From a phage, in sequence record PQ724393.1: a stretch of 64,000 bases of DNA, one strand, 5' to 3'. Position 1 is the first letter of the stretch. Each line of letters opens with the position of its first letter. Made by a program: the position numbers and the translations under genes. The notes below the pieces were generated by a model. That model saw only the letters and a program-made list of their open reading frames with translations. It had not been told where the DNA came from and made no database searches. Shown here piece by piece: positions 3,471 to 61,296 of the stretch.

Positions 3471-3488
3471 AAAGGGCCGAAGCCCTTA
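3471..3488 (-). terminator. putative rho-independent terminator
   Basis: AAGGGCTTCGGCCCTT hairpin (UUCG loop) then TTTAT; overlaps lipoprotein stop. Confidence 0.5.
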
Positions 3489-5259: not shown

Positions 5260-5301
5260 AATTTTTCTCTCTTGGTTAAAGGTTTATTCTCCATGAGAGC
5301 C

Positions 5302-5330
5302 ATTATAACATGGCCCTCGATAAAGTAAAC
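5302..5330 (-). promoter_or_regulatory. early promoter (GTTTAC-17-TATAAT)
   Basis: Perfect -35/-10 with 17-nt spacer upstream of ORF 4693..5259. Confidence 0.6.
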
Positions 5331-5332
5331 TA

Positions 5333-5884
5333 TTAATTCAATACGTTAACCACTGCACTACGAGGTACTACACTAAAATCACCAGCATGGACAACGTTCA
5401 GGAGTTCAACACCATCTTCAATCCACTGGTCTGTTACCCAACCGCAGATAGGGTTATCAAAAGGACGACGGATAGCCACAGCAGCACACAGAAGGTCGGT
5501 AGGGTCTTGTTCGACTTCGACTTCACGGAAAAGCCCAAATTCAGCTTCATAGACTAGGATTTTCTCTACTTTGTTATTATCTAACCGGCGGCCATGTATT
5601 ACGTAAGATTTAGTAAACCAGTCACTTTTGGCGAATTCTTCAACAATAAATTCGCCTTCGCCAAAAACATCAGTCAGAGTTTTATAACCGGAAATCAAGG
5701 CCTTAGTTTTAATTTCAGGTTCAACCAGTTTGTAGGTTTTGCCGATTTCGATAGTCTGAGTAGTCATAGCGGTTTCCTTAATTTCCAGTGGTTTAACAGG
5801 GCATACATAAGTGCTTAAAACATCAAAATCAATCAGTTTAGCTGCCGGATTCGGGGTGTATTTAGGGTTGTAATTAAATTTCAT
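5333..5884 (-). CDS. hypothetical protein (183 aa), tandem paralog B
   Basis: C-terminus WVTDQWIEDGVELLNVVHAGDFSVVP; ATGA overlap with upstream ORF. Confidence 0.6.
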   Translation of the reverse strand: MKFNYNPKYTPNPAAKLIDFDVLSTYVCPVKPLEIKETAMTTQTIEIGKTYKLVEPEIKTKALISGYKTLTDVFGEGEFIVEEFAKSDWFTKSYVIHGRRLDNNKVEKILVYEAEFGLFREVEVEQDPTDLLCAAVAIRRPFDNPICGWVTDQWIEDGVELLNVVHAGDFSVVPRSAVVNVLN

Positions 5885-6390
5885 AATTTTCTCATTTCAA
5901 TAAAATCTACGAGTTCGGCATAGGATTTGCGGAACATTACTTGGCGGCCACCAATGACAACCTCATCTTCAGGTATTTCGTAAACAGCAAGGTAGAATCC
6001 TTTAGAAGATAATTCTTCGCGCTCTTCACGAGTGAACCAGCGCATCATATCATACTCACTGGCAAAAGCAAAATGGTAGAGGTTAACAAACCAGCCTGGA
6101 ATATAATCGTCGCAGCCTTCATAATCAGGCCGTTTCCACTTAGTTCTAATGGTTTTATTAGAATTTTCTACCAGCAACGTATCTTGACTTGGTAGTGGGA
6201 TATTTTTATTAATGCTATGATGATGTCTAAAAATAGGTCTGTCTAAACCTACTTCTAATAACCAGCCTTCACTCCACGAGTCTGTTGTACTTCTATACGG
6301 GGTCATTTGAGTACAGAGGTCTCGTCGTATTGTGATAGCGTTTCCATCATCTAAGATACTGAACGATGACTCAACTCGATAAATTTTCAT
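5881..6390 (-). CDS. hypothetical protein (169 aa), MotB-position
   Basis: ORF with SD GAGGAG and conserved early promoter upstream; size and position like T4 motB but identity not verified. Confidence 0.55.
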   Translation of the reverse strand: MKIYRVESSFSILDDGNAITIRRDLCTQMTPYRSTTDSWSEGWLLEVGLDRPIFRHHHSINKNIPLPSQDTLLVENSNKTIRTKWKRPDYEGCDDYIPGWFVNLYHFAFASEYDMMRWFTREEREELSSKGFYLAVYEIPEDEVVIGGRQVMFRKSYAELVDFIEMRKL

Positions 6391-6416
6391 TTTGTTCTCC
6401 TCATGTTGATAGGGTT

Positions 6417-6445
6417 ATAGTATCATGCCATGAGGAGAAGTAAAC
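6417..6445 (-). promoter_or_regulatory. conserved early promoter
   Basis: Coding strand GTTTAC-17-TGATACTAT; arms CTCCTCATG/CATGAGGAG flank the -10 and include the SD. Confidence 0.6.
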
Positions 6446-38681: not shown

Positions 38682-38936
38682 TTACCTCAGCAGTTTGTAT
38701 CCAATAAGATGTTTAATGTATTGGACATCTTTGACATCCAAATCTAACTTAATATCTTTCAGGCGTTCGGCCAGAGTAAGAAATGTTACGCGTTTCCAAT
38801 TCTTAACAGGGCAACAATAAGTTTTCGGCCCGTTAGCGATTTCAATATTTTTATCTGTGACGGTGATAAAAATCAAACGTTCATCATCGAGATTAAGGGT
38901 GACGACACTTTTGGTTGAATGTAGTTTCAGGCTCAT
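38682..38936 (-). CDS. hypothetical protein (84 aa)
   Basis: Track ORF. Confidence 0.5.
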   Translation of the reverse strand: MSLKLHSTKSVVTLNLDDERLIFITVTDKNIEIANGPKTYCCPVKNWKRVTFLTLAERLKDIKLDLDVKDVQYIKHLIGYKLLR

Positions 38937-39115
38937 AATTTAATTTCCTTAGCTATCGAACAAAACAAACTACGGTCACATACCATCAATGGAATATTTC
39001 TATGGTCTAGTACACGATACCATACGTCTGAATCGCTAGCAGCAATTACACGAACCGCACGCCCATTTACCAAATAATACTGGTCGGCTTTAATTTCTTT
39101 ATCTTGGATAGTCAT
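38933..39115 (-). CDS. hypothetical protein (60 aa)
   Basis: Track ORF; conserved early promoter and SD GAGGAGA upstream. Confidence 0.5.
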   Translation of the reverse strand: MTIQDKEIKADQYYLVNGRAVRVIAASDSDVWYRVLDHRNIPLMVCDRSLFCSIAKEIKL

Positions 39116-39144
39116 AATGTTCTCCTCATGTGTTGATAGGATAG

Positions 39145-39173
39145 ACTATAACACGTGAGGAGAGGAAGTAAAC
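39145..39173 (-). promoter_or_regulatory. conserved early promoter
   Basis: GTTTAC-17-TATAGT; flanking arms CCTCACGTG/CACATGAGG. Confidence 0.55.
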
Positions 39174-40102: not shown

Positions 40103-40576
40103 TCATTTAAGCGATTTCCTCAGTTGTTTTTTAAATGAATCGACCATTTGTTTCTTTGTGTCAGATTCATTATAAGTCATTCCATGTGAAAGCATTTCAG
40201 CAATCATTTCTTCCTTACCTAATCTACTGAACTCTTTGGTTTTATCAGTTACAAAAGTAGGGTGAATAGGATTCTTGGAGCAATCATTCTCGAGGTACGC
40301 AACTAGATTTTTAAGACACTCGAGGTAGTCGTTGCCACGACCTTTAAGACCAGAGCGTACAAATTGGTGTCTGCTGCGTCCTTCCCAGGCGTTACAAAGA
40401 TTACAGAGCAACCCACGAACTCGTCCGGCTTGTAGCCCTTCTAAATCATGAGAGTGGTCTAAGTGGTTACTTTGAACATCCGTATTTAGATGTTGTTTAC
40501 ATACTAAACACAAGCCCTGTTGGTCTTTGTACATCTGTTCTTTTTGTTCTTTATAAAGCTTGCCAGTCAACAACAT
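40103..40576 (-). CDS. 49: endonuclease VII (Holliday junction resolvase) gp49
   Basis: 157 aa; MLLTGKLYKE...HLDHSHDL...RGLLCNLCNA...NESDTKKQ...FKKQLRKSLK matches recalled T4 endo VII. Confidence 0.92.
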   Translation of the reverse strand: MLLTGKLYKEQKEQMYKDQQGLCLVCKQHLNTDVQSNHLDHSHDLEGLQAGRVRGLLCNLCNAWEGRSRHQFVRSGLKGRGNDYLECLKNLVAYLENDCSKNPIHPTFVTDKTKEFSRLGKEEMIAEMLSHGMTYNESDTKKQMVDSFKKQLRKSLK

Positions 40577-40611
40577 AATAAACCCTTACCATTATTAGAT
40601 AAGGGTATTTA

Positions 40612-40845
40612 TTATTTTTCGAATGTACTATAAAACGAGCGATGTAATCGTTTAAATTGACGCATCATCTTTTTGGTAGGTCGAGTGGACAATCCTACAC
40701 ATGTAGCCATAAACTGGTCAACAGGACTTCCTTTGATAAGAAGTTTCCAGACCTTTGCGCCATTTAATTTTTCAGTATAAATCAGTTCAGTTTTCATAGT
40801 AAAACCCAAACTCCATATCGATGAAATCATTGTTTGAAGGTTCAT
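40612..40845 (-). CDS. small basic protein, PTKRQ-motif family; start uncertain
   Basis: C-terminal STRPTKKMMRQFKRLHRSF. Confidence 0.45.
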   Translation of the reverse strand: MNLQTMISSIWSLGFTMKTELIYTEKLNGAKVWKLLIKGSPVDQFMATCVGLSTRPTKKMMRQFKRLHRSFYSTFEK

Positions 40846-45141: not shown

Positions 45142-45666
45142 TTATGCGAGAACCGTCTTTAAACGCTCTTCAAATTTCTGAAGCAGAGCTTGGCGTTCAG
45201 CTCGTTGTGATTTGTACTGCTCGATACGACCTGAAGTGAGGGCGTACTGTTCGTTTACTGATTCCCGCATGAATTCAGGAATCTCTTTACAAGCTTTGAT
45301 TTCGTCAAACTTATCAATAACAGCTTGTTGTTCAGCAATCAGATTATCGAAATAAGCGATATCAGATTTAACGTTTGCCAGGTCGGATTCAGTAGGCATT
45401 AAACGTTTGTTACGTTCAGCTTGATAAGCTTGATTGGTTTCACGACTCCAGTGAAGAGTACGTTTTTTGTTAGTGTTTTTATAGAGCTCTACAATACCAA
45501 CTGAATCGATGACTGCAATCCAGTTCCAACGGCTTTTGTAAATCTCTCCTCCAGATACGGTAATCTCATTACCACAAGCAACATCGTTAAAGAACTTGCT
45601 TTGTTTTTCAGATTTGAAATTACCGTTGTTGAAATTAATCAGTGAAAAAATATCTTTAGCGTTCAT
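45142..45666 (-). CDS. hypothetical protein (174 aa)
   Basis: Conserved early promoter and SD upstream. Confidence 0.55.
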   Translation of the reverse strand: MNAKDIFSLINFNNGNFKSEKQSKFFNDVACGNEITVSGGEIYKSRWNWIAVIDSVGIVELYKNTNKKRTLHWSRETNQAYQAERNKRLMPTESDLANVKSDIAYFDNLIAEQQAVIDKFDEIKACKEIPEFMRESVNEQYALTSGRIEQYKSQRAERQALLQKFEERLKTVLA

Positions 45667-45692
45667 GATAACCTCCAGTAGTTGATAGGTCT

Positions 45693-45721
45693 ATAGTATC
45701 ATTTCTACTGGAGATGTAAAC
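45693..45721 (-). promoter_or_regulatory. conserved early promoter
   Basis: GTTTAC-17-TGATACTATAGACCTATCAAC; arms CTCCAGTAG/CTACTGGAG. Confidence 0.6.
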
Positions 45722-47140: not shown

Positions 47141-47165
47141 CAAAAAAGGACCCCGAAGGGTCCTA
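47141..47165 (-). terminator. rho-independent terminator
   Basis: AGGACCC-TTCG-GGGTCCT followed by TTTTTTGGG. Confidence 0.7.
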
Positions 47166-51162: not shown

Positions 51163-51193
51163 ACGAAAAAAAGGTCCCACCGAAGTGAGACCT
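51163..51193 (-). terminator. rho-independent terminator
   Basis: AGGTCTCAC-TTCG-GTGGGACCT followed by TTTTTTTCG. Confidence 0.65.
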
Positions 51194-51197
51194 TTGA

Positions 51198-54969: not shown

Positions 54970-55428
54970 TTAAAGATAGATTACTTTCGTGCTGGTTTTA
55001 CCTTCTAAACGTTTAGAGTTAACAAATGCCATACGACATTTTAATGAATATCCTTTATCAGGATGTTTACGATCTACGGTCATACCCAACCATAAGGTTT
55101 TATCAGTAATCTCGAGACGCAGCGGACGATACACTTTACCTGGGACAATTTCAGATTCTATGTCAGGAAGAGGCTCCTGGATTAAAAATTCATGGATTTC
55201 TTTAACATGGTTATGGAGTTGCTTGAATAAAGCAAAAACGTATTTTTCGTCAATTTCACGTTGGATAGCACGGTCCAACAAGTGATTAGAGTACTTAATA
55301 AAGAAAGCTGGGACCCCGCTCTTGATGGCGGCTTTTTTGATGGACGCGTTAAGTTCACGAAATTCGGTTTCGAACTGACGACGTAATTTGTTGCGGCGGA
55401 TGAATACTTCTGAATTAATTTCTGACAT
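54970..55428 (-). CDS. regB: RegB endoribonuclease
   Basis: Start reset to MSEINSEVFIRRNKLRR...; 153 aa; strong similarity to recalled T4 RegB; promoter and SD AGGAGA upstream. Confidence 0.8.
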   Translation of the reverse strand: MSEINSEVFIRRNKLRRQFETEFRELNASIKKAAIKSGVPAFFIKYSNHLLDRAIQREIDEKYVFALFKQLHNHVKEIHEFLIQEPLPDIESEIVPGKVYRPLRLEITDKTLWLGMTVDRKHPDKGYSLKCRMAFVNSKRLEGKTSTKVIYL

Positions 55429-55456
55429 TTTGTAATCTCCTGTAGTTGATAGGTCT

Positions 55457-55485
55457 ATAGTATCATGTCTACAGGAGATGTAAAC
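55457..55485 (-). promoter_or_regulatory. conserved early promoter upstream of regB
   Basis: GTTTAC-17-TGATACTATAGACCTATCAAC; arms CTCCTGTAG/CTACAGGAG. Confidence 0.65.
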
Positions 55486-55490
55486 TGCTT

Positions 55491-55769
55491 TTAGTATTTT
55501 TCCTCGGGTTGGAAAACAGAACGACAGGCCCACATGGATGCTTCTTTCAAGCGTTCGATTGCCGTACGAATCTGGGTAATGCGTTCATGAGCCTGGTCTA
55601 GTTCTTGTTCAGAAACCTCTTCGGCATCTAAGTTCATATAATAGGTAACATGTTCTTCTTCTAATGCTTTAAAGATTAAGCCTAATCGAACTTCAGCATC
55701 TTTAATGGCATTCACTTTACTGATTTTATCGTCGGTATGTGACTTGTAACCTTTGATATCTTCAATCAT
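55491..55769 (-). CDS. hypothetical protein (92 aa)
   Basis: Track ORF. Confidence 0.5.
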   Translation of the reverse strand: MIEDIKGYKSHTDDKISKVNAIKDAEVRLGLIFKALEEEHVTYYMNLDAEEVSEQELDQAHERITQIRTAIERLKEASMWACRSVFQPEEKY

Positions 55770-57320: not shown

Positions 57321-57350
57321 TGATAGAAGTATTCTACCACGGATTTAATT
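57321..57350 (-). promoter_or_regulatory. putative promoter upstream of ipII-like gene
   Basis: ATTTAC-18-TAGAAT. Confidence 0.45.
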
Positions 57351-57765
57351 AAGCGTAAATAGCCTTGCCATAGTGTTTGTACCAGGTAGGACGTTGTGCA
57401 ATTTTTTCATCCAAACGGGTTTGTGAAATAGCGATAGAAGCTTCGTGAGGAGCATAATCACCACGGAATTCCTGAGGAATATCACTAATGTCCTGGACCG
57501 TAGTATCTTTGATATTAAAGCCACGTTTTAAACATTCGGCTATAAGCTCGATTTGACGCTTACGTAAAAATTCAAGCTTATCGTAAAAGAATGTAACATG
57601 GCCTGCGCCAAGGATAAAAGTAGGACTGATTTTGAAATCACGGACACGTTTACCATTAGCAACATGCTTACGAACTGCACCGAAAACACGTGGTAATTCA
57701 CGATATTCAGCCATTAAGTGTTGGTCAGCCAATTCAGATACTAAGGTAAGGTTGATACGAGTCAT
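57349..57765 (-). CDS. denV: endonuclease V (pyrimidine-dimer DNA glycosylase)
   Basis: 138 aa; [67 protein letters not shown]... nearly identical to recalled T4 DenV. Confidence 0.95.
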
Positions 57766-57792
57766 TTTTAATCTCCTGTAGTTGATAGGTCT

Positions 57793-57821
57793 ATAGTATC
57801 ATGTCTACAGGAGATGTAAAC
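57793..57821 (-). promoter_or_regulatory. conserved early promoter upstream of denV
   Basis: Same 41-nt block as 55457 promoter. Confidence 0.65.
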
Positions 57822-57845: not shown

Positions 57846-58442
57846 TTAATTACCACGGGCTGCATTAGCAACGGCGTAAGCGTACTGAACATTAGCGTCT
57901 TTAAACGTACCTTTAGAGGTATCTATTTCTGCCTTAAAGCCACCTTTAGCCATAACATCAGCAAATTCTTTACGGAAAGCCATTGCATCAAGACCTTTCC
58001 ATGATGATTTGTGCTTGGCAAATTCAAGACCGGCGAAGTTGACAGCCTTAGCCAATTTATTATCAATAGTCCATTTACCTGCTTTAGGTACAACTACCGG
58101 GCCTTTTTGTTTAGAGAACAGTTTTAAATTCCAGCGACGAAGGTCGCCGTCAGCTTTAACAAAAGCTGCGTCCAAGTTACTAGCAACAACATCCTGAATA
58201 TGGCCAAATTTAAGCCCATCAGCTTCAATATTTAGGTCGTTACGCCAGCGAAGTCCTTCCCAGGCGAAAGCTTTAAAGTCAGAAGCTTTTGTAGCTAAAT
58301 ACCGTTCAATAGGAGCTGTTTTAGCGTCAAAACCATTTCCTGGGTTGTCAACGCCATTTCCTCGGTAGGTCCACTCATCTTTATTAATGCCTTGGACCTT
58401 TCCTACAGAAGCTTCGGCGATAAATTCTTTATACGTTTTCAT
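57846..58442 (-). CDS. ipIII: internal head protein, IpIII-like
   Basis: 198 aa; N-terminal MKTYKEFIAEA capsid-targeting sequence. Confidence 0.65.
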   Translation of the reverse strand: MKTYKEFIAEASVGKVQGINKDEWTYRGNGVDNPGNGFDAKTAPIERYLATKASDFKAFAWEGLRWRNDLNIEADGLKFGHIQDVVASNLDAAFVKADGDLRRWNLKLFSKQKGPVVVPKAGKWTIDNKLAKAVNFAGLEFAKHKSSWKGLDAMAFRKEFADVMAKGGFKAEIDTSKGTFKDANVQYAYAVANAARGN

Positions 58443-58495
58443 ACGGGTTCCTTAAAGGTAAATATTTTAATTAGTCTGTTCAATTAACTGTAGAT

Positions 58496-58524
58496 ATACT
58501 ATCACAATTCTAGGAGATGTAAAC
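58496..58524 (-). promoter_or_regulatory. early promoter upstream of ipIII-like gene
   Basis: GTTTAC-17-TGATAGTAT. Confidence 0.5.
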
Positions 58525-58529
58525 TGCTT

Positions 58530-59018
58530 TTATCTATAAGCGGCCCAAGTACCTGTTTTAAATGTTGAAATCACGCGCTTAGCACGGTTAGGGGTTTGCT
58601 TGTACCAACGAGATTGAGCCAGGTTAACTGCCGCATCGTTCCAACGTTTCTGTTGGAGCATACGTAAAGAGTTAGTGAACCCTGCTACACCTGCTTCACC
58701 CATTTGGAAGACCATGTTAATTAAAGCACAACGACGAACTTCATCGAGCACATCATAAACAGGTTTCAATTTAGGATTACGCAGAATAGCTCTACGAGCA
58801 TTATCAACCGACCGGTTAAAGAGTTGTTCTGCTTCAGCCATAGTAATACGACCATTACAAACTCGACCCATAAGCTTATCAAGTTCAGCGCGGGCAACAT
58901 CTTTAGATGGGTTCTTGGTAACTAACTGGCCAATACCAATAGTCCAATAACCTTCAGTGTCTTTATAAAGATTTAAATCAAGACCTTCGTCTTGACGTAA
59001 CATATCAAAAATATCCAT
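58530..59018 (-). CDS. e: lysozyme (endolysin) e
   Basis: 162 aa; [51 protein letters not shown] match recalled T4 lysozyme; SD AGGAGG. Confidence 0.95.
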
Positions 59019-59020
59019 AA

Positions 59021-59048
59021 TACCTCCTGAGTATAGGAGGTATTTATA
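59021..59048 (-). promoter_or_regulatory. gene e late promoter (TATAAATA) plus RBS-sequestering hairpin
   Basis: Coding strand GATATAAATA then ACCTCCT-ATACTC-AGGAGGT, where the second arm is the SD of e. Confidence 0.6.
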
Positions 59049-61230: not shown

Positions 61231-61267
61231 TTTATTCTCCATTTCACTCTGTTGTTTTGATAGGTCT

Positions 61268-61296
61268 ATAGTATCACACCTATAGACCTTGTACAC
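61268..61296 (-). promoter_or_regulatory. conserved early promoter (variant -35 GTGTAC)
   Basis: GTGTAC-17-TGATACTATAGACCTATCAAAAC; inverted repeat GGTCTATAG/CTATAGACC. Confidence 0.5.

Follow-up and report, generated by a model that had tools for sequence, protein, structure and literature searches.

Why should a phage promoter contain the complement of the ribosome-binding site of the gene that it drives? The question is raised by a stretch of phage DNA of 64,000 nucleotides (sequence record PQ724393.1), referred to here as the window, in which the spacer of an early promoter at 45664-45721 on the minus strand is complementary to the Shine-Dalgarno (SD) sequence just downstream. A first-pass annotation of the window had described inverted repeats of this kind at five sites, and had read them as a switch that restricts translation to promoter-proximal transcripts. 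The five elements belong to the published PeSL class of cassettes, the repeated sigma70-like promoters with a stem-loop of T4-type phages, and the proposed mechanism is a known T4 principle on a different promoter class. Taking predicted folds and sequence comparisons together, we consider it probable that these PeSL-type early promoters double as translational insulators, which would keep a gene silent on RNA entering from upstream and open on RNA started at the promoter itself.

Results

Five early promoters with spacers complementary to their own Shine-Dalgarno sequences

The window has a G+C content of 39% and is 91-97% identical to T4-like Dhakavirus (JS98-group) coliphages. Heuristic calls of open reading frames (ORFs) across the window place 126 of 141 on the minus strand. 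Since the genes lie on that strand, the inverted-repeat sites must be read as the reverse complement, and all features of the five cassettes given below are on the minus strand. All five inverted repeats were recovered at, or within a few bases of, the positions given in the first-pass annotation.

Read in this sense, each of the five sites is a sigma70-type early promoter of the form GTTTAC(A/T)-N16-TGnTAnnnT. The 22-nt promoter core occurs in nine copies in the window, against 0.01 expected, and an SD and an ATG follow each copy; the 5′ untranslated region (UTR) at these promoters is about 22 nt. At all five sites the 5′ arm starts on the last base of the -35 hexamer and occupies the -35/-10 spacer, while the 3′ arm spans the GGAG SD, leaving the -10 and the predicted transcription start in the loop. 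The inverted repeats that enclose the -10 are 9-16 nt long, and the loops measure 23 nt, or 9 nt if an inner stem forms.

The cassette of the nrdC.8-like gene (174 amino acids, coding sequence (CDS) 45142-45666; orthologue of T4 nrdC.8) runs from the G of GTTTAC through the ATG, with GTTTACATCTCCAGTAGAAATGATACTATAGACCTATCAACTACTGGAGGTTATCATG as the minus-strand sequence of 45721-45664. Its -35 hexamer TTTACA (45715-45720) and its -10 have the spacing TTTACA-16-TACTAT, with a TG preceding the -10; the extended -10, TGATACTAT, lies at 45693-45701. Within the promoter spacer is the 5′, anti-SD arm AUCUCCAGUAG (45705-45715). Transcription is predicted to start near 45686, in the hairpin loop, on the usual 7-nt spacing after the -10. 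The strongly conserved AGACCTATCAAC follows the promoter, and after it come the GGAG SD, contained in the 3′ arm CUACUGGAGGU (45671-45681), and the ATG (45664-45666). The inverted repeat itself (45673-45681/45705-45713) is 9 nt at 100% complementarity, or 11 bp allowing one G.U pair.

The regB cassette (55426-55485; CDS 54970-55428, PF10715 RegB, 6.6e-69) pairs a 5′ arm AUCUCCUGUAG at 55469-55479 with a 3′ arm and SD CUACAGGAGAU at 55435-55445 around a -10 at 55457-55462, and the two arms form an inverted repeat of 11 nt at 100% complementarity (55435-55445/55469-55479). The denV cassette (57763-57821; CDS 57349-57765) has its 5′ arm at 57805-57815, its -10 at 57793-57798 and its 3′ arm and SD at 57771-57781. 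Its repeat (57766-57781/57805-57820) is longer, 16 nt at 88% with a perfect core of 11 nt, and its stem is extended outwards by pairing between the -35 region and the A-rich spacer plus AUG. Upstream of the motB.2-like gene (CDS 5881-6390; T4 orthologue motB.2) the cassette occupies 6388-6445, with the 5′ arm UUCUCCUCAUG at 6429-6439, the -10 at 6417-6422, the 3′ arm and SD CAUGAGGAGAA at 6395-6405 and a repeat of 16 nt at 88% (6390-6405/6429-6444). The fifth cassette (39113-39173) precedes an ORF of 60 amino acids (CDS 38933-39115); its 5′ arm UCUCCUCACGUGUU (39150-39163), -10 (39145-39150) and 3′ arm with SD AACACAUGAGGAGA (39121-39134) make a repeat of 14 nt at 93% (39121-39134/39150-39163) with one C.A mismatch.

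The claim that the arms differ between loci and stay complementary thus holds in general, but with two corrections: the 9-mers originally given for the 39121 site contain the C.A mismatch, and the copies at 55464 (regB) and 57800 (denV) are identical and count as one event.

Predicted folds of read-through and promoter-started RNA

Read-through RNAs of 140 nt running through the cassettes were folded and compared with RNAs begun at the predicted start. In both the minimum-free-energy and the centroid folds of the read-through RNAs, the SD lies inside an 11-bp stem at all five sites. An inner 5-bp stem, UGAUA/UAUCA, arises from the conserved core, and at three of the five sites an outer extension joins the -35 region to the A-rich spacer and the AUG. 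The z-scores range from -1.9 to -6.1, the local hairpins from -18.3 to -21.1 kcal/mol (T4 regB, -23.1 kcal/mol), and the SD pairing probability in read-through context from 0.87 to 1.0. RNA from the gene's own promoter lacks the 5′ arm and its SD is therefore predicted to be open; these RNAs have folding energies of -1.4 to -5 kcal/mol and positive z-scores, i.e. they are less structured than shuffled sequences. Two expectations of the first-pass annotation agree with these predictions: that a transcript started at the promoter (here predicted to begin 7 nt after the -10, in the loop) would be without the upstream arm and have a free SD, and that the SD would be paired in read-through RNA.

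By the same scoring the hairpin of T4 gene e reaches -13.3 kcal/mol and is less stable than those of the five sites, and on long transcripts it is reported to reduce the synthesis of lysozyme about 100-fold (PMC3014915). When the 141 ORFs were ranked by how strongly their SD is paired in read-through RNA, the five sites came out at the top alongside gene 49 (40103-40576), although gene e scored only 0.55 despite its late-promoter hairpin. Pairing probability saturates, with a background mean of about 0.55 and values above 0.8 for stems of as little as 5 bp, and duplex energy was used instead in the comparisons that follow.

Own-promoter pairing and covariation

Promoters were picked by a regular expression blind to the arms, and the duplex between each gene's own promoter (-35 to -1) and its SD was scored. 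In the window, 5 of 16 promoters have an own duplex of -14 kcal/mol or lower, compared with 5% of cross-pairings (permutation P = 0.0004). A wider set of 189 unique promoter instances, comprising the window and 150 related viral loci, shows a bimodal distribution of spacer:SD duplex energy, one mode standing apart between -16 and -23 kcal/mol.

Covariation was examined in an alignment (A1) of 41 distinct same-register instances selected regardless of their arms. Eight of the 11 outer pairs have changed on both sides, and double-change cells number 48 against 21.8 ± 3.2 after shuffling, a value that none of 500 shuffles reaches. The covariation score is 0.222, compared with 0.128 for shuffled alignments and at most 0.107 for slid-register controls. 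The inner 5-bp stem is near invariant in A1 and hence uninformative on this point. A further scan, anchored solely on the constant GTTTACNTCTCC-N8-TGNTA, recovered many more arm variants of up to 14 bp, e.g. UUCUCCUCUAGUUG/CAACUAGAGGAGAA, UUCUCCAGUAGUUG/CAACUACUGGAGAA and UUCUCCUCUGGUU/AACCAGAGGAGAA. Among 36 unique arm pairs, chosen by the constant TCTCC alone, the bases beside CUCC match those beside the cassette's own GGAG to a degree reached in 0 of 20,000 permutations, and at least eight arm pairs are clearly different. Arm complementarity or covariation exceeds that of shuffles, cross-pairings and slid registers alike; complementarity no better than in shuffled controls was one of the outcomes that the first-pass annotation had said would refute it.

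Mismatches in the SD helices are also in keeping with RNA pairing. With symmetric scoring, transition-type mismatches are G.U in 16 cases and A.C in 3 (p = 0.002), an excess that fits a sense-strand RNA helix but that we treat as no more than suggestive; on the 41-sequence alignment the counts are 4 and 1, too few events to inform. An earlier count of 38 to 3 was discarded because the helix finder rewarded G.U and was hence biased.

These comparisons bear on the notion that the repeats act at the DNA level, as a recombination signal or a cruciform driving the shuffling of PeSL cassettes, or are a neutral by-product of quasi-palindrome templated correction, the RNA fold having no role. Quasi-palindrome templated mutation is well known in T4. 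Recombinant or broken cassettes do exist: L047 joins a 5′ arm CUCCAUUAG to a 3′ arm CUACUGGAG, L075 has its 5′ half swapped, and in the window the 3′ arm at 58496-58524 is truncated. The authors of the PeSL papers, moreover, propose recombination at the cassettes and a possible stem-binding protein. A protein site, however, would need a conserved arm sequence, whereas the arms vary yet stay complementary; a palindromic protein operator was rejected on the ground that its half-sites are not conserved, with 8 of 11 pairs changed on both sides. Nor does a DNA-level account explain the identity of the 3′ arm with the SD, the shift of the anti-SD into the discriminator of some denV orthologues, the absence of strong stems from promoters with a preceding terminator (both described below), or the prevalence of G.U over A.C among sense-strand mismatches. 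We regard it as very unlikely.

The same pairing in T4 and other phages

Early promoters of T4 show the same preference for their own SD, with 8 of 22 having an own duplex of -14 kcal/mol or lower against 7.6% of cross-pairs (P < 0.0002). The eight genes are alc, ndd.4, alt.-3, nrdC.8, regB, denV, motB.2 and modB. For regB, denV, nrdC.8 and motB.2 the pairing is kept in both T4 and the present phage, which belong to two genera, and the arms differ in three of the four. The T4 denV gene has the same cassette as here, AUCUCCUGUAG/CUACAGGAGA. T4 regB, by comparison, carries a different 13-bp stem with two G.U pairs, so that the regB arms read AUCUCCUGUAG/CUACAGGAGAU in the window, UUUUCCUCUUGAC/GUUAAGAGGAGAA in T4 and UUCUCCUCUAGUUG/CAACUAGAGGAGAA in L075; like regB, nrdC.8 and motB.2 hold a stem with different sequences across orthologues.

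The position of the anti-SD can change as well. In other phages the denV anti-SD lies in the discriminator and not in the spacer (GUCCUCC/GGAGGAC in L021 and GUUCUC/GAGAAC in L139), and at T4 modB the -10/discriminator is paired with the SD. What is constant across loci, taking the starts as predicted, is that the SD pairs with something upstream of the transcription start.

Four of the T4 genes, alc (ATG at 136275 of NC_000866), alt.-3 (123032), ndd.4 (166749) and modB (13130), have predicted promoter:SD duplexes of -15 to -25 kcal/mol and are absent from earlier listings of sequestered translation initiation regions. Those of alc and alt.-3 share one common cassette. For ndd.4, the geometry of the SD and hairpin suggests that the annotated ATG is not the real start, which would be an ATG five codons further on.

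Read-through, terminators and strong stems

The ORFs upstream of the five cassettes stop 8-30 nt ahead of the 5′ arm with no terminator between. On both counts, RNA reading through from upstream should exist.

The published view of PeSL cassettes is that the stem-loop is a terminator or attenuator that halts incoming transcription, so that insulation would occur at RNA synthesis and not at translation. One PeSL stem-loop of RB49/phi1, placed between a promoter and lacZ, indeed lowered expression to the same extent as rrnB T1 did (Arbiol et al. 2010, PMC2839356). The stem tested was, however, of the GGGG…CCCC type, unlike those described here, and a lacZ read-out cannot tell termination from a translation block or Rho polarity. 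The hairpins of the window also differ from terminators in form. None of the five is followed by a U-run (the tails are AUUAAAAAUG, AUUACAAAAUG, GUUAUCAUG, ACAAAAUG and ACAUUAUG), their loops are long at 23 nt (9 nt with the inner stem), and their 3′ arm is always the SD. Scans of the window returned 30 terminator-like sites, none of them at the five cassettes. An intrinsic (Rho-independent) terminator at the five cassettes was rejected on these two counts, the missing U-run and the missing terminator-scan match.

Canonical terminators are found elsewhere in the window, directly upstream of other early promoters on the minus strand (51170-51195, 47147-47164, 17542-17559, 13042-13061, 3472-3487 and about 1385-1410). 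They have GC-rich stems, mostly UUCG or similar tetraloops, and then a T-run, and the promoters paired with them are without strong SD stems. With upstream terminators called by a fold-based detector, strong stems (-14 kcal/mol or lower) number 33 among the 138 instances that have no terminator upstream and 0 among the 51 that do (189 instances, Fisher 1.6e-5). Collapsing by gene family and state leaves 14 of 74 against 0 of 23 (p = 0.036). In the window and in five other phages, the gene for a product starting with MKTIDCKA… has a terminator together with no more than a 5-bp match, whereas its L118 version lacks the terminator and forms a stem of 14 bp. This mutual exclusivity fits a device that neutralises read-through, and it is also what would be expected if the stem substituted for a terminator.

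A second class of stem could also work in that way. Here the spacer pairs with the -10/discriminator and the SD is free, and again the arms vary by locus yet are complementary: GGUCUAU/AUAGACC, GGGCUAU/AUAGCCC, AGGCUAU/AUAGCCU and GGUAGGACU/AGUCCUACC. Such stems lie at 61256-61296, 16530-16571 and 5300-5330 on the minus strand of the window, and also in L001, L008, L012, L018 and L055, e.g. AGGUCUAUAG/CUAUAGACCU; of the 17 with at least 7 bp, 16 are without an upstream terminator. They show no covariation on alignment A1, because A1 excludes the 30-nt promoters bearing this class. Weighing the lacZ result and the exclusivity against the form of the five hairpins, we consider transcription termination an unlikely function for them.

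Related elements and neighbouring genes

A weaker relative of the cassettes precedes a ModA/ModB-like ADP-ribosylase gene (11124-11179, minus strand; CDS 10554-11126), with an own duplex of -12.0 kcal/mol. Its promoter contains two separate anti-SD copies, ACCUCC in the spacer and GACCUC in the discriminator, each of them complementary to the SD GGAGGUC and located ahead of the predicted start.

Upstream of an internal-virion-protein gene is a degenerate cassette (58442-58524, minus strand) that retains an intact promoter and 5′ arm AUCUCCUAGA, but whose 3′ arm ends after AUCUACAG, with unrelated sequence beyond; it looks like a recombination scar inside a cassette. The gene directly upstream of the regB cassette (55491-55769, minus strand) encodes an Acb2/Tad1-hairpin-domain protein (PF24729, 8.6e-15) of the vs.4-like anti-CBASS sponge family. 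No Rfam family matched at gathering score in the whole 64-kb window.

Discussion

Relation to known systems

In T4, long transcripts of genes e, soc, 49 and I-TevI cannot be translated, their SD being sequestered, and an inner late promoter yields RNA that is open (Uzan & Miller 2010, PMC3014915). The five sites resemble this arrangement in that a helix predicted for upstream-derived RNA buries the SD and/or the AUG, and in that the inner promoter, at its predicted start, gives RNA without the 5′ strand of the helix. They differ in that their promoters are sigma70 early promoters and not late promoters of the type TATAAATA, in that the 5′ arm is inside the promoter spacer, and in that the element is a repeated, shuffled cassette. 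The logic would also be reversed: where the late promoters delay translation, the five sites would limit it to immediate-early times and shield the gene from early or middle read-through coming from upstream. No early-promoter case is among the sequestered genes of the 2010 review (PMC3014915), and full-text literature searches, whose reach did not extend to older subscription literature, returned no earlier description of SD occlusion at early promoters.

Late-type boxes occur within the SD hairpins of only two genes in the window, e and 49. Upstream of gene 49 (endonuclease VII, 40103-40576), a late-promoter-like AATAAATA lies in a hairpin at 40577-40618 (minus strand, -15.5 kcal/mol) that buries SD and AUG; this is the documented T4 gene 49 arrangement, conserved in this phage. 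Upstream of the lysozyme gene e (58530-59018), at 59019-59045 (minus strand), TATAAATA is followed by ACCUCC pairing with GGAGGU at -14.1 kcal/mol (TATAAATACCUCC…GGAGGUAUU), which is the classic read-through silencing hairpin of T4 e.

The second relative is the PeSL itself, a repeated element of T4-type phages in which the stem-loop takes variable positions relative to a sigma70-like promoter, including the -35/-10 interval or an overlap with the -10 (PMC2839356; Comeau et al. 2014, PMC4122927). Its authors read the elements as terminators or attenuators and as linkers for modular recombination, and translation is never discussed (PMC2839356; PMC4122927). JS98 is credited with PeSL-like sequences in that literature. 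Like PeSLs, the five sites combine a strong sigma70-like early promoter with an overlapping or adjacent stem-loop, are repeated between genes, have an SD and a start codon at the 3′ end and lie below an AT-rich upstream region. The hybrid or broken cassettes (L047, L075 and 58496-58524) hint at recombination within them as well, and PeSLs are associated with indels or recombination in variable regions. Unlike them, the 3′ arm here is the SD and there is no U-tract, whereas the RB49/phi1 stems are of the form Gn…Cn and the T4/PST stems are drawn upstream of the promoter.

A third comparison is with translational coupling. In the hairpins of polycistronic operons and of RNA phages, such as MS2 coat-replicase, a downstream SD is masked by long-range or local pairing and is opened by ribosomes translating the upstream cistron. 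The five sites share with MS2 the masking of the SD by pairing within polycistronic RNA. They depart from it in that the 5′ arm lies 8-30 nt past the upstream stop, and in that the alternative route to an open SD would be a second transcription start.

A model for early-promoter cassettes

The analysis shows the geometry of the sites, their predicted folds, the covariation and the conservation across orthologues. From them we infer the start positions, the existence of read-through RNA, a block to 30S binding and the temporal consequence that follow in this model. The anti-SD arm (…CUCC…) lies in the -35/-10 spacer, upstream of the predicted start, and the SD arm would fall at about +6 to +16 of the gene's own transcript. 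RNA from an upstream promoter would hold both arms and form a hairpin in which the GGAG SD is hidden, together with the AUG at three of the five sites. On such read-through RNA the cistron would be silent and its paired GGAG shielded from RegB; on RNA from the gene's own promoter the SD would be open, translated and afterwards exposed to RegB. Expression of regB, denV and the nrdC.8-like and motB.2-like genes, and in T4 also of alc and modB, may thus be limited to a brief immediate-early pulse of their own promoters. More speculatively, an untranslated cistron might trigger Rho polarity, which would make the stem resemble an attenuator in reporter assays.

The involvement of RegB leads to the possibility that the hairpins control RNA decay, either by guarding the GGAG of long polycistronic RNAs from RegB or by serving as a 3′ stabiliser of the upstream cistron after cleavage, with promoter-proximal RNAs being RegB-sensitive. 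RegB cleaves the GGAG of early SDs, including that of its own gene; RNA secondary structure protects, and GGAG-bearing RNAs are resistant in some early and most middle cases (PMC3014915). GGAG is present in all five 3′ arms, the hairpin is found on regB itself both here and in T4, and stems of the second class, which sit just upstream of the SD, would cap the 3′ end of an upstream fragment. Protection is, however, largely a complementary consequence of the same fold, and because a paired SD is untranslatable anyway, sequence analysis cannot separate it from translational silencing. As the main purpose of the cassettes, control of decay seems to us quite unlikely.

Returning to translational insulation, several observations weigh against it. 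Second-class stems of at least 7 bp are found in 17 of 157 promoters against 1.6% of cross-pairs (P < 0.0002, own-versus-cross test), and since they leave the SD free, SD occlusion cannot be the sole reason for promoter-embedded stems. The association with terminators depends on how a stem is defined: by a loose criterion (SD pairing probability of at least 0.8), promoters with and without terminators show occlusion equally often (p = 0.5), so that the association rests on the stem-strength threshold, which was picked after the bimodal distribution had been seen. Kinship among the cassette copies, and orthology of many of the loci, mean that shuffle and permutation statistics overstate independence. 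Part of the G.U excess is to be expected, given the composition of the arms and the constraint acting on the SD. With a 5′ UTR of only about 22 nt, there is hardly any way for a stem to enclose the -10 other than by using the SD region. Finally, ribosomes terminating on the upstream ORF might partly open the stem, giving translational coupling and not a block.

All computational tests that were run favour the proposed switch. The elements are published PeSL cassettes, which the first-pass annotation did not recognise, and the principle had already been documented for T4 e, soc, 49 and I-TevI. Support for the switch is partial, given that its consequence for translation at these sites is predicted, that the PeSL identity had been overlooked, that the principle has precedents in T4, that the second stem class exists and that the loose criterion shows no association.

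Implications for T4-type phages

If the insulator model is correct, PeSL cassettes would be reinterpreted as translational insulators, and control of the lysozyme type, described in T4 for a few genes with late promoters, would be extended to about one in three early promoters. It would help to explain per-gene expression windows in dense, read-through-prone early regions, and how the RegB nuclease, Alc and ModB stay in a brief early pulse. As the same stems occur in T4 (regB, denV, alc and modB), the idea is directly testable in the best-developed phage genetic system, and an anti-SD within a promoter spacer would be a compact part for synthetic operon insulation.

More tentatively, it is possible that T4-type phages possess a genome-wide translational insulation code, in which about a third of early promoters, including those of T4 regB, alc, modB, denV, motB.2 and nrdC.8, would carry an anti-SD within the promoter and each such gene would be translated only from its own immediate-early transcript. 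Many PeSL stems would then be translational and not transcriptional devices. Mobile promoter cassettes would be plug-and-play, with expression independent of the landing site, and together with RegB cutting open GGAG sequences, the code would yield a sharp, self-limiting pulse of dosage-sensitive proteins.

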